Shown: positions 1,002 through 4,687 of the stretch, in pieces
Layout: every line of letters begins with the position of its first letter
Numbering within the stretch: position 1 is the stretch's first letter
From: a virus
Lineage: Duplodnaviria; Heunggongvirae; Uroviricota; Caudoviricetes
DNA length: 5,387 nucleotides
Virus record (IMG/VR): IMGVR_UViG_2645727555_000012
Direction: 5' to 3' (one strand)
Position numbers and translations under genes: made by a program
The notes under the pieces: generated by a model
Database searches by the model: none
Seen by the model: the letters and a program-made list of their open reading frames with translations, nothing else
Told to the model about the DNA's origin: nothing

Positions 1002-1745
1002 ATGACAAAGACAGAATCAGCGATTCTGGCGCACGCCCGGCGATGTGCGCCAGCGGAGTCGTGCGGCTTCGTGGTGAGAACGCCGGAGGGGGAAAGATAT
1101 TTTCCCGGCGTGAATATTTCCGGTGAGCCGGAGGCGTATTTCCGTATGTCGCCGGAAGACTGGCTGCAGGCAGAAATGCAGGGTGAGATTGTGGCACTGG
1201 TCCACAGTCATCCCGGTGGTCTGCCCTGGCTGAGTGAGGCTGACCGGCGGCTGCAGGTGCAGAGTGATTTGCCGTGGTGGCTGGTCTGCCGGGGGGCGAT
1301 TCACAAGTTCCGCTGTGTGCCGCATCTCACCGGGCGGCGCTTTGAGCACGGGGTGACGGACTGTTACACGTTGTTCCGGGATGCTTATCATCTGGCGGGG
1401 ATTGAGATGCCGGATTTTCATCGCGGGGATGACTGGTGGCGTCACGGTCAGAATCTCTATCTGGATAATCTGGAGGCCACAGGGCTGTATCAGGTGCCGT
1501 TGTCATCAGCACAACCGGGCGATGTGCTGCTGTGCTGTTTTGGTTCATCGGTGCCGAATCATGCCGCCATTTACTGTGGTGATGGCGAGCTGCTGCACCA
1601 TATTCCTGAACAACTGAGCAAACGAGAGAGGTATACCGACAAATGGCAGCGACGCACACACTCCCTCTGGCGTCACCGGGCATGGCGCGCATCTGCCTTT
1701 ACGGGGATTTGCAACGATTTGGCCGCCGCATCGACCTTCGTGTGA
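1002..1745 (+). CDS. K: Tail tip assembly protein K (gpK-like): N-terminal JAMM/MPN metalloprotease domain plus C-terminal NlpC/P60 papain-like domain
   Basis: 247 aa ORF starting 5 nt after the L stop. It contains the JAMM motif H68-S-H70-x7-S78-x2-D81 ([14 protein letters not shown]) and an NlpC/P60-like Cys121 (GVTDCYTLF) with His188 and His199/200. The classical 199 aa lambda K corresponds to the internal in-frame ATG at 1146, which has a GGAGG at 1130-1134. The 3' end overlaps gene I by 103 nt (1643-1745), as in lambda. Confidence 0.85.
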
Positions 1746-4687
1746 AAACGGGGGCTGAAGCCATCCGCGCACTGGCCACACAGCTCCCGGTGTTTCGTCA
1801 GAAACTGAGCGACGGCTGGTATCAGGTACGGATTGCCGGGCGGGACGTCAGCACGTCCGGGTTAACGGCGCAGTTACATGAGACTCTGCCTGATGGCGCT
1901 GTGATTCATATTGTTCCCAGAGTCGCCGGGGCCAAGTCAGGTGGCGTATTCCAGATTGTCCTGGGGTTCGGCAGCCAGCAGGTGAGCCGTAATTATCATC
2001 TTCGCGGGCGCATTCTGCAGGTGCCGTCGAACTATAACCCGCAGACGCGGCAATACAGTGGTATCTGGGACGGAACGTTAAAACCGGCATACAGCAACAA
2101 CATGGCCTGGTGTCTGTGGGATATGCTGACCCACCCGCGCTACGGCATGGGAAAATGTCTTGGTGCGGCGGATGTGGATAAATGGGCGCTGTATATCATC
2201 GGCCAGTACTGCGACCAGTCAGTGCCGGACGGCTTTGGCGGCACGGAGCCGCGCATCACCTGTAATGCGTACCTGACCACACAGCGCAAGGCGTGGGATG
2301 TGCTCAGTGATTTCTGCTCGGCGATGCGCTGTATGCCGGTATGGAACGGGCAGACGCTGACGTTCGTGCAGGACCGACCATCAGATAAGGTGTGGACCTA
2401 TAACCGCAGTAATGTGGTGATGCCGGATGATGGCGCGCCGTTCCGCTACAGCTTCAGCGCCCTGAAGGACCGCCATAATGCCGTTGAGGTGAACTGGATT
2501 GACCCGAACAACGGCTGGGAGACGGCGACAGAGCTTGTTGAAGATACGCAGGCCATTGCCCGTTACGGTCGTAATGTCACGAAGATGGATGCCTTTGGCT
2601 GTACCAGCCGGGGGCAGGCACACCGCGCCGGGCTGTGGCTGATTAAAACGGAGCTGCTGGAGACGCAGACCGTGGATTTCAGCGTGGGTGCCGAAGGGCT
2701 TCGCCATGTGCCGGGTGATGTTATTGAAATCTGCGATGATGACTATGCGGGGATCAGCATCGGCGGGCGCGTGCTGGCGGTGAACAGCCAGACCCGGACG
2801 CTGACGCTCGACCGTGAAATCACGCTGCCATCCTCCGGTACCACGCTGATAAGCCTGGTTGACGGGCAGGGGAGTCCGGTCAGCGTGGAGGTTCAGTCCG
2901 TCACCGACGGCGTGAAGGTGAAAGTGAGCCGTGTTCCTGACGGCGTTGCTGAATACAGCGTATGGGGGCTGAAGTTGCCGACGTTGCGCCAGCGCCTGTT
3001 CCGCTGCGTGAGTATCCGTGAGAACGACGACGGCACGTATGCCATCACCGCCGTGCAGCATGTACCCGAAAAAGAAGCCATCGTGGATAACGGGGCGCAC
3101 TTTGACGGCGACTTGAGCGGCACGGTGAATGGCGTCACGCCGCCCGCGGTGCAGCACCTGACTGCCGAAGTCACCGCAGACAGCGGGGAATATCAGGTGC
3201 TGGCGCGCTGGGACACGCCGAAGGTGGTGAAGGGCGTGAGCTTTATGCTTCGCCTGACCGTGGCAGCGGATGACGGCAGTGAGCGGCTGGTCAGCACGGC
3301 CCGGACGACGGAAACCACATACCGCTTCACGCAACTGGCGTTGGGAAACTACAGGCTGACAGTCCGGGCGGCAAATGCCTGGGGGCAGCAGGGCGATCCG
3401 GCGTCGGTATCGTTCCGGATTGCCGTACCGGCAGCACCGTCGCGGATTGAGCTGACGCCGGGCTATTTTCAGATAACCGCAACGCCGCATCTTGCCGTTT
3501 ATGATCCGACGGTACAGTTTGAGTTCTGGTTCTCGGAAAAGCGGATTACCGATATCAGGCAGGTTGAAACCACAGCCCGCTATCTTGGCACGGGACTGTA
3601 CTGGATAGCCGCCAGTATCAATATCAAACCGGGCCATGATTATTATTTTTACGTTCGCAGTGTGAACACCGTTGGCAAATCGGCATTTGTGGAGTCCGTC
3701 GGTCGGGCGAGCGATGATGCGGAAGGTTACCTGGATTTTTTCAAAGGCAAGATAACCGAATCCCATCTCGGCAAGGAGCTGCTGGAAAAAGTCGAGCTGA
3801 CGGAGGATAACGCCAGCAGACTGGAGGAGTTTTCGAAAGAGTGGAAGGACGCCAACGATAAGTGGAATGCCATGTGGGCTGTCAAAATTGAGCAGACCAA
3901 AGACGGCAAACATTATGTCGCGGGTATTGGCCTCAGCATGGAGGACACGGGGGAAGGCAAACTGAGCCAGTTTCTGGTTGCCGCTAACCGTATCGCATTT
4001 ATTGACCCGGCAAACGGGAATGAAACGCCGATGTTTGTGGCGCAGGGCAATCAGATATTCATGAACGACGTGTTCCTGAAACGCCTGACGGCACCCACCA
4101 TTACCAGCGGTGGCAGTCCTCCGGTATTTTCCCTGACATCAGACGGAAAGCTGACCGCTAAAAATGCGGATATCAGTGGCAGTGTGAATGCGAACTCAGG
4201 GACGCTCAACAACGTCACGATTAATGAGAACTGTCAGATTAAGGGGAAACTGTCAGCCAACCAGATTGAAGGTGATATTGTCAAAACGGTCAGCAAGTCT
4301 TTCCCCCGCACGAGCACTTATGCCAGTGGCACCATCACGGTAAGAATCAGTGATGATCAGAAATTTGACCGGCAGGTCATGATACCGCCAGTGTTATTCC
4401 GCGGTGGTAAGCATGAGAATTTCAACAGTAATAACCAACAGTCATACTGGTATTCAACCTGCCGGTTAAGAGTGACCCGCAATGGTCAGGAGATTTTTAA
4501 GCAGTCCACGACGGATGCTCAGGGCGTATTTTCCTCAGTTATAGATATGCCTGCCGGACAGGGGACGCTGACACTGACATTCACCGTATCTTCATCAGGA
4601 GCGAATAACTGGACACCAACAACCAGTATCAGCGATCTGCTGGTTGTGGTGATGAAAAAATCCACAGCAGGTATCAGTATCAGCTGA
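1643..4687 (+). CDS. In-frame fusion of tail assembly protein I (N-terminal ~108 aa, ubiquitin-like domain) with host-specificity / central tail fibre protein J (from about lambda J residue 227 to the C-terminus); probable deletion derivative
   Basis: Continuous 1014 aa ORF. Residues 1-108 ([49 protein letters not shown]...[12 protein letters not shown]) match the gpI N-terminus. From residue 109 ([36 protein letters not shown]...) the sequence matches gpJ from about residue 227 onward. The arithmetic fits: 108 + (1132 - 226) = 1014. A GAGAGG Shine-Dalgarno lies upstream at 1626-1631. Could alternatively be typed as a pseudogene; kept as CDS because the frame is intact. Confidence 0.82.

Follow-up and report, generated by a model that had tools for sequence, protein, structure and literature searches.

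In phage lambda (NC_001416), the tail tip assembly/insertion protein and the central tail fibre, or tip attachment protein, come from two genes, I (14773–15444; 223 aa) and J (15505–18903; 1132 aa), with a 60-nt spacer between them; a preliminary description of the DNA studied here had cited these sizes and this spacing, and the lambda reference confirms them. Structures of the lambda tip resolve gpI residues 101–223 inside it, with a plug at 159–175 and strands that thread gaps in the gpJ hub domains (PMC11101478). The glycine-rich hydrophobic segments H1/H2 of gpI, its plug and its C-terminal beta-strand domain (TAPI-C) belong to the tail-tip lumen (PMC11101478, PMC10721106, PMC12617516), and gpI 134–222 binds gpH 818–849 (PMC12617516). 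In gpJ, an FNIII-A domain (72–215) is inserted between strands beta4 and beta13 (216–223) of the HDII-insertion domain (PMC10721106).

The division into separate genes is not universal. [quoted passage not shown] The plug domain of pb3 sits where the gpI tripod does. Natural TAPI-TAPJ fusions are also known (Iyer, Burroughs & Aravind 2006), in which the ubiquitin-like (Ubl) domain of gpI opens a single polypeptide that runs on as a J-type hub and fibre. Here we describe an Escherichia coli prophage in which I and J likewise form one reading frame, with a different set of domains.

A chimeric I–J gene in a lambdoid tail-tip cluster

The window, that is, the whole stretch of 5,387 nucleotides under study, contains a lambdoid tail-tip cluster with the order M'-L-K-[I'-'J]-lom. 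As in lambda, the order is that of M-L-K-I-J-lom, the I start overlaps the K end and I begins at the ATG annotated in lambda. Gene M, for the distal tail protein (2–298, plus strand), is an ORF colinear with the 109-aa M of E. coli O39:NM F8704-2 and of a second locus carrying the chimera (L005); it lacks the first 11 codons solely because the window starts at a scaffold gap, the N run lying immediately 5' of M in scaffold DF970462.1. Gene L (298–996, plus strand; 232 aa; Pfam Phage_tail_L, 2.6e-100) is intact and encodes hub domain I and the 4Fe-4S domain. The adjoining K (1002–1745, plus strand; 247 aa) is also intact, with Prok-JAB at residues 3–98 and NLPC_P60 at residues 111–224, and the HSHx7SxxD motif of its JAB/MPN+ domain is preserved. 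Beyond the J stop codon, a consensus scan picked out a terminator-like hairpin and T run (4705–4733, plus strand), followed by an intact lom (4754–5353, plus strand; 199 aa; Pfam Ail_Lom, 3.7e-118) for an Ail/Lom outer-membrane protein. An Rfam scan of the window matched no RNA family.

Between K and lom, a single plus-strand ORF (1643–4687; 1014 aa) spans the 5' part of I and most of J in frame, as the preliminary description had proposed. GAGAGG stands 11 nt 5' of the ATG at 1643. Alternative starts in I' are ATG 1682 and GTG 1742, and gene callers use a GTG start that yields a chimera of 981 aa. The kept part of I (1643–1966, plus strand) encodes gpI residues 1–108, comprising the ubiquitin-like beta-grasp N-domain through its conserved glycines, G100-G101, and seven further residues (VFQIVLG). 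The preliminary description had made its reading depend on these residues being gpI-like, and they plainly are: 107 of the 108 are identical to lambda gpI, G100-G101 among those present, and Lambda_tail_I (PF06805) matches chimera residues 14–97 at 2e-28. The kept part of J (1967–4687, plus strand) encodes gpJ residues 227–1132 and the stop codon. Against the lambda structure, chimera residues 1–110 align to gpI 1–110 (PDB 8iyk_I) and residues 108–1013 to gpJ 226–1131 (PDB 8iyk_J).

The J part includes hub domains HDII, HDIII and HDIV, FNIII-1, FNIII-2, the helical shaft, the central fibre and the receptor-binding domain (RBD). The Pfam families Phage-tail_3, Ig_J, Ig_J_second, Phage_Tail_Tip and Ig_GpJ_C (accessions PF13550, PF24421, PF24489, PF09327 and PF12421) are all kept at full length. 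Compared with lambda gpJ, 757 of 906 residues are identical. The differences cluster in the RBD, which is ~98% identical to the "A8 gpJ" of PDB 9wca, whereas that of lambda is of the LamB-binding type. An AlphaFold2 model of chimera residues 1–430, built on a 30-sequence alignment, was unusable (mean pLDDT 37.6), and our statements on domain boundaries are based on the published lambda structures and Pfam.

Extent and ends of the deletion

The closest undeleted relative, a locus of E. coli O39:NM F8704-2 (NZ_CP050998.1 1875387–1881859; here L003), is 99.9% identical to the window, with 3 substitutions in 5387 bp, and phage 2H10 (NC_049950) is 97.4% identical. Both have the same flanking late genes as the window but, unlike it, carry I and J as separate, full-length genes, with a J of 1132 aa; the I of undeleted relatives is annotated as 190 aa by PGAP and has 223 aa from the lambda-type start. 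In a base-by-base alignment to L003, the window has a single gap, exactly 1086 bp (362 codons) in length, falling between positions 1966 and 1967 and so refining the earlier estimate of 1964–1969. The missing DNA is L003 1967–3052, equivalent to lambda 15097–16182. The left alignment runs to window position 1966 and the right one begins at 1966, and G1966 can be assigned to either side.

The junction couples gpI residue 108 to gpJ residue 227, the residues near which the preliminary description had placed the transition. The DNA lost takes in 348 nt of I (115 codons and the stop), the whole 60-nt spacer and the first 226 codons of J, or 678 nt; the earlier estimate had been roughly 345 + 60 + 678 bp. 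With the spacer went the ribosome-binding site of J, and the J start codon is gone as well, but 1086 is a multiple of three and translation from the I start thus continues into J. At the protein level, the loss amounts to gpI 109–223 and gpJ 1–226. TAPI-C, the plug and H1/H2 all lie within the deleted part of gpI, and the comparison of Pfam domains before and after the deletion shows that FNIII-A_GpJ (PF24801; J residues 86–207 in F8704-2) is missing together with gpI beyond residue 108, the remaining domains being retained.

We found no repeat at the deletion ends. The microhomology that the preliminary description had suggested looking for is limited to 1 nt, which is at chance level, as at least 1 nt is shared by 45% of random position pairs. 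Because the ends lack homology, the deletion would be an event of illegitimate recombination. The visible late genes from C to tfa, I and J aside, are all full length, which makes the lesion look recent in evolutionary terms. The preliminary description had envisaged a defective or cryptic prophage and a search for further decay; the lesion in I/J stands, while no erosion is visible elsewhere from C to tfa. The second locus, which is free of N gaps, agrees: its other late genes from C to tfa match those of F8704-2 in length. Heads, lysis functions, lom and side-fibre genes appear untouched by the deletion. We consider it very probable that a lambda-like E. coli prophage underwent a single recent illegitimate deletion of 1086 bp in its late operon, which produced the I'-'J chimera and left the prophage tail-defective. 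As to the type of prophage, the early-region neighbours in F8704-2 bear DLP12-style gene names.

Other routes to the same junction fit poorly. Slippage mediated by microhomology was rejected, with 1 nt common to the ends and the nearest direct repeats (CAGGTGG and similar) out of register. Excision of a mobile element, intron or intein was rejected on the grounds that the missing DNA is the ordinary 3' end of I, spacer and 5' end of J found in all relatives. Comparison with L003 also revealed an 8-nt inverted repeat at the breakpoints: its remaining arm, CGGCAGCC, lies at 1969–1976 of the window, and the partner arm, GGCTGCCG, started at the left breakpoint of the undeleted sequence (L003 1966–1973). 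Such a repeat is unusual in comparison with random breakpoints (P ~0.005 by simulation, in a post hoc test). The geometry does not suit a hairpin bypass, however, as the deletion takes one arm and the loop and leaves the other arm.

Both breakpoints lie at boundaries of protein domains, gpI 108/109 just past the GG of the Ubl domain and gpJ 226/227 just past strand beta13 (216–223). With the frame kept as well, the deletion looks a little tidier than a random lesion would, and the chimeric protein could well be able to fold.

Expected consequences for the tail tip

[quoted passage not shown] It also lacks the HDII-insertion domain and FNIII-A of gpJ, which pair with the 4Fe-4S domain of gpL and with gpI. 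As these parts are lost and the prophage has no separate I or J gene, assembly of the tail tip is expected to fail: the tail-tip initiator could not assemble normally, and the prophage alone would make no infective tails. Going by lambda's own structures, the deletion most likely leaves the prophage tail-defective. Co-resident lambdoid prophages might complement the I/J defect or repair it by recombination.

The chimera could alternatively have been kept for a new role, and two forms of this idea can be envisaged. The JAB domain of gpK might cut after G100-G101 and free a J without its hub insertion, which would co-assemble with the tail-tip proteins of co-resident lambdoid prophages and lend them the A8-type RBD; or the chimera might act as a dominant-negative poison of tail assembly in competing phages. 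A published prediction has JAB cleaving gpI at the glycine that ends the Ubl domain (PMC1779556), and the JAB motif of K, the RBD and the fibre are all intact. Some prophage proteins are known to keep invading phages from assembling their virions (PMC10884400). The preserved frame and the coincidence of both breakpoints with domain boundaries (PMC10721106) also point in this direction, but an in-frame outcome has a chance of one in three and the coincidence was noticed post hoc. Two diverged strains still carry the allele, and the two SNPs private to L005 that fall within the chimera are both synonymous; on the other hand, the two assemblies are closely related and the only ones to carry the allele, and two SNPs are too few to indicate either selection or relaxed constraint and may derive from intact J alleles by recombination. 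Moreover, a lysogen keeps the late operon, where the chimera lies, silent, and a PADLOC search with the chimera, K and Lom matched no defence model or family. We therefore regard a new role as very improbable. Marginally less probable still is its most specific version, a domain-precise excision giving a foldable protein of Ubl-GG joined to gpJ from HDII onward that is processed by the JAB domain of gpK and either alters the RBD of co-resident tails or poisons competing lambdoid tails. The chimera is ordinary prophage decay and does not constitute a new system.

Natural fusions and distribution of the junction

A further reading takes the window as a natural and functional I–J architecture, as found in some lambdoid phages. 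Proteins that join gpI and gpJ in one polypeptide do exist, three of them (P0205, P0236 and P0207) having been identified in a library of 1.84 billion proteins, and the proposed equivalence of gpL, gpI and the gpJ N-region to T5 pb3 also speaks for this reading. All three, however, are end-to-end fusions that retain the C-part of gpI and the FNIII-A/HDII-insertion module, with P0205 holding Lambda_tail_I at 7–89, FNIII-A at 319–411 and Phage-tail_3 at 560–712, whereas the chimera has neither the complete gpI nor the complete gpJ domain set. The distance from the end of the Ubl domain to the start of Phage-tail_3 is accordingly ~450 aa in P0205 and P0236 and 115 aa in the chimera. T5 pb3, too, keeps equivalents of the plug and the HDII-insertion, exactly what the chimera has lost. 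In an exhaustive search, diverse J homologs of 1000–2500 aa had the segment homologous to chimera residues 108–330 at their residues 225–260; they thus keep ~225–260 residues ahead of the retained segment, which indicates family-wide conservation of the deleted module. Finally, the flanks match, at 99.9% identity, a locus whose I and J are separate and full length, and the fusion must hence be derived and of very recent origin. A natural functional fusion is thus very unlikely.

The distribution of the junction agrees with a young deletion. None of 5426 complete E. coli genomes contains it, and neither do 50,697 phage records, of which the 102 that match do not span it; related functional phages thus lack this architecture, in keeping with the preliminary description. 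Searches of GTDB species representatives, IMG/VR and JGI metagenomes did not find it elsewhere, and a word-indexed protein search returned no other cluster representative spanning it. Among all collections searched, the allele is limited to two related NCBI assemblies (GCA_001297725.1 and GCA_918347965.1), both of which record the exact 981-aa protein. The junction DNA is identical in the two, while the loci otherwise differ by 17 SNPs, and the second assembly must therefore derive from a different set of reads. The two loci (L004 and L005) have 5 differences from F8704-2 in common, with 14 private SNPs in L005 and none in L004, a pattern that fits one deletion event passed to two distinguishable strains.

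These data also speak to an assembly artefact, in which reads were collapsed or mis-joined and the true genome has intact I and J: although the window is a 5.4-kb contig with N gaps on both sides in a scaffold of a draft genome, and E. coli of this type hold many near-identical lambdoid prophages (F8704-2 has 10 places matching the window), a collapse requires a repeat where the deletion ends have 1 nt in common, the same junction recurs in a gap-free 28-kb contig of an independent assembly and the SNPs are tree-like, leaving this the least credible reading of all and the artefact raised in the preliminary description excluded as far as sequence alone allows. Some I and J products in the protein database do show odd internal tandem duplications, which may be artefacts.

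A second in-frame chimera of I and J between K and lom, P0122 (GCA_946056825.1 / GCA_946055205.1), has different breakpoints and joins gpI 1–180 to gpJ 1085–1132, keeping the last 48 residues of J only. Its prophage is heavily eroded, with everything between a terminase gene and L gone, in contrast to the prophage of the window with no other visible lesion. The occurrence of such a chimera in so eroded a prophage shows that I–J chimeras recur as decay products.

For annotation, the ORF should be called an I'-'J deletion chimera or pseudogene and not "host specificity protein J", with the prophage itself counted as tail-defective. The chimera would be a convenient large reporter substrate for the cleavage of gpI past its Ub-like domain by the JAB domain of gpK. 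It also offers a clean, naturally occurring allele in which what is missing is exactly the virion part of gpI and the HDII-insertion/FNIII-A module of gpJ, the two pieces that recent cryo-EM work proposes to plug the tube and to open it upon receptor binding.

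Tail-tip genes and the I-J deletion

The plus strand of the window holds a lambdoid tail-tip gene block, as read from the six-frame ORF list and Pfam: M (2-298, 5'-truncated), L (298-996; Phage_tail_L, 2.6e-100), K (1002-1745; Prok-JAB and NlpC/P60), a 1014-aa chimeric ORF joining I to J (1643-4687) and lom (4754-5353; Ail_Lom, 3.7e-118). Rfam gave no match in the window. Within the chimera, Pfam places Lambda_tail_I at residues 14-97, followed by Phage-tail_3, Ig_J, Ig_J_second, Phage_Tail_Tip and Ig_GpJ_C.

The window had matches in 271 phage records and in close to 5000 complete E. 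coli genomes, and all top matches aligned as two pieces, with about 6472 bp of subject per 5386 bp of query. The best match, E. coli O39:NM F8704-2 (99.9% identity), has the undeleted locus, from which the window differs, base by base, by 3 substitutions (window 245, 2377 and 4501) and a single gap, exactly 1086 bp long. The left alignment stops at window 1966 and the right one starts at 1966, leaving one ambiguous G, and the frame is preserved across the junction because 1086 nt make 362 codons. Relative to F8704-2, the window lacks the final 348 nt of I (115 codons and the stop), the 60-nt spacer and the initial 678 nt of J (226 codons). The lambda reference annotation gives I at 14773-15444 (223 aa), J at 15505-18903, a spacer of 60 nt and an I/K overlap of 103 nt, and the deletion corresponds to lambda 15097-16182. 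Matched to solved structures, the first 110 residues of the chimera correspond to residues 1-110 of lambda gpI, and its residues 108-1013 to gpJ 226-1131. The preliminary description had proposed an in-frame fusion of I and J by an internal deletion of about 1.1 kb; the single gap confirms this, the proposed positions, residue numbering and size being off by no more than a stop codon, and the gpI-like nature of residues 1-108 is borne out by the Pfam and structural matches.

Gene I has three candidate starts. ATG 1643 is the annotated lambda start, with GAGAGG 11 nt upstream, and ATG 1682 is the beginning of the Pfam ubiquitin-like domain. PGAP and other gene callers choose GTG 1742, which gives a 190-aa I and a 981-aa chimera. 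This start lacks a Shine-Dalgarno-like sequence, and its use would remove about the first 20 residues of the ubiquitin-like domain; the automated call is probably mistaken. In the window, as in RefSeq prophages, K has 247 aa and a complete JAB domain with HSHx7SxxD present, whereas lambda K is annotated with 199 aa because NC_001416 is one nucleotide short relative to the window at about 14267 (window 1136), which closes the K frame upstream; the missing nucleotide may be a lambda PaPa mutation or an old sequencing error.

At the other end of the chimera, the C-terminal 420 residues of J (window 3425-4684, receptor-binding domain included) are about 98% identical to PDB 9wca/9wcb 'A8 gpJ 713', and the last ~150 residues are strongly diverged from the LamB-binding domain of lambda; the fibre is therefore intact and of a non-lambda receptor specificity type. 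A strong terminator-like hairpin, a consensus match only, lies between the J stop and lom at window 4705-4733 (8-bp stem with 5 GC pairs, then TTTTTTATT), and separate transcription of lom from the late operon would fit this prediction.

The lost module and predicted consequences

The part of gpI remaining in the chimera is the ubiquitin-like N-domain only, and FNIII-A_GpJ (J residues 86-207), found by Pfam in the undeleted protein, is lost. Lambda gpI is a virion protein whose N-domain is unresolved in cryo-EM; its residues 101-223 comprise two hydrophobic helices and a plug (159-175) closing the tube lumen, with strands threading gaps in the gpJ hub domains (PMC11101478). [quoted passage not shown] In gpJ, the HDII-insertion domain, which the 4Fe-4S domain of gpL completes, carries FNIII-A (72-215) as an insert between its strands beta4 and beta13 (216-223) (PMC10721106). 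With gpI 109-223 and gpJ 1-226 gone, one contiguous structural module has thus been removed, made up of the gpI portion for plugging and membrane insertion and the domain of gpJ onto which it docks. When 1.84 billion representatives were searched exhaustively, diverse J homologs, 1000-2500 aa long, had the retained segment at their residues 225-260; the deleted N-module is thus a conserved part of the family.

J has lost its ribosome-binding site and start codon, the prophage keeps neither I nor J as a gene of its own, and translation beginning at the I start would run on into J. Lambda I and J were both defined through conditional-lethal mutations; gpJ nucleates the tail-tip initiator, on which gpI, gpL and gpK then act. 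Without plug, gpH anchor and HDII-insertion domain, the prophage alone should make no functional tails. F8704-2 has 10 places matching the window and the two strains with the deletion probably carry several lambdoid prophages, so complementation in trans or recombinational repair of the defect is conceivable.

Some features leave a little room for a chimera that folds, undergoes processing by K and either disturbs other lambdoid tails or assembles along with them. Both breakpoints are at domain boundaries, the left just past G100-G101 of the ubiquitin-like domain and the right 3 residues past beta13, where the assigned strands of the HDII-insertion domain end, and both private SNPs that the second deleted copy (GCA_918347965.1) has within the chimera are synonymous. 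An 8-nt inverted repeat, GGCTGCCG / CGGCAGCC, lies exactly at the breakpoints of the undeleted sequence (F8704-2 locus 1966-1973 and 3055-3062), GGCTGCCG beginning at the left breakpoint and CGGCAGCC 2 nt past the right one (right arm at window 1969-1976); a random-breakpoint simulation gave P ~0.005 for this, in a test chosen post hoc. PADLOC, however, matched no defence model, and these features are too weak to overturn a reading as decay; we consider a functional chimera very improbable. An AlphaFold2 model of residues 1-430 was unusable (mean pLDDT 37.6).

The deletion most likely arose by illegitimate recombination, there being no homology at its ends. The microhomology looked for at the breakpoint came to 1 nt only, and 45% of random position pairs in the same sequence share at least as much. 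A simple hairpin bypass via the inverted repeat does not fit the geometry, and no mechanism involving this repeat fits cleanly.

The junction in independent assemblies

The window is one whole contig inside scaffold DF970462.1 (GCA_001297725.1; locus positions 8260-13646), flanked by stretches of 106 and 147 N, and an assembly artefact was worth ruling out because the contig is bounded by gaps. The 5' truncation of M and the loss from the scaffold of the 3' end of the tape-measure gene and the 5' end of stf are such gaps, not biology. Against an assembly collapse at the junction, no collapse-prone repeat is found there, and a second assembly, GCA_918347965.1, has the same junction DNA on a 28.1-kb contig that is free of gaps and encodes the exact 981-aa product (GTG start). 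The two deleted loci differ by 17 SNPs across 21.5 kb and are therefore not the same data. Neither assembly accession turned up in the literature searched. Over the stretch common with F8704-2, a three-way comparison found 5 differences from F8704-2 common to both deleted copies, with 14 private SNPs in the gap-free copy and 0 in the scaffold copy, the pattern that one deletion inherited by two distinguishable strains would leave.

The junction was absent from 5426 complete E. coli genomes (no place covering at least 80% of a 120-nt junction probe), GTDB species representatives, IMG/VR and JGI metagenomes; the deletion allele is private to a small lineage. A comparison of gene lengths in the gap-free copy covered the late genes from C to tfa, the early prophage region lying beyond the contig ends. 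Apart from I and J, each of these genes is as long as its F8704-2 counterpart (C, D, E, FI, FII, Z, U, V, G, T, H, M, L, K, lom, stf and tfa), with H at its full 853 aa, M at 109 aa and stf at 1008 aa. A search for other decay thus returned no length changes among the visible late genes, so that the lesion seems to be a recent, isolated event and not one sign of a general erosion.

I-J fusions and prophage decay

Fusions of TAPI to TAPJ in some prophages were noted by Iyer et al., who also predicted that gpI is cut by the gpK JAB domain at the C-terminal glycine of the ubiquitin-like domain (PMC1779556). The gpI ubiquitin-like domain matches positions 187-288 of the 399-position profile phrog_28576, a match that hints at fusions of the K-I type, which Iyer et al. 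2006 mention (PMC1779556). The window does not have the architecture of natural I-J fusions: the natural fusion proteins P0205, P0236 and P0207 retain FNIII-A and the C-terminal part of gpI and have about 450 aa between the end of the ubiquitin-like domain and the hub core, whereas the chimera lacks both and has 115 aa. Related functional phages do not have the arrangement of the window either, its junction occurring in 0 of 50,697 phage records.

Seven further gpI/gpJ variants from public E. coli assemblies (P0016, P0017, P0042, P0043, P0080, P0083 and P0087) have in-frame internal tandem duplications of 50-100 residues; these may reflect genuine duplications or assembler loops where prophage regions are rich in repeats.

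Another in-frame chimera of I and J, the 195-aa protein P0122, joins gpI 1-180 to gpJ 1085-1132 in an E. coli prophage where the whole stretch between the terminase gene and L is missing as well. At that locus (5047-8588; GCA_946056825.1, CAMGLU010000001.1), a truncated terminase (513 aa) abuts a truncated L (212 aa), followed by K, the chimera and lom; this prophage is a much more eroded relative. I-J chimeras are a recurring product of prophage decay. The overall interpretation first given to the window is supported: its I-J deletion chimera is real, well explained and ordinary prophage decay, a further instance of the already known I-J decay chimeras of prophages.
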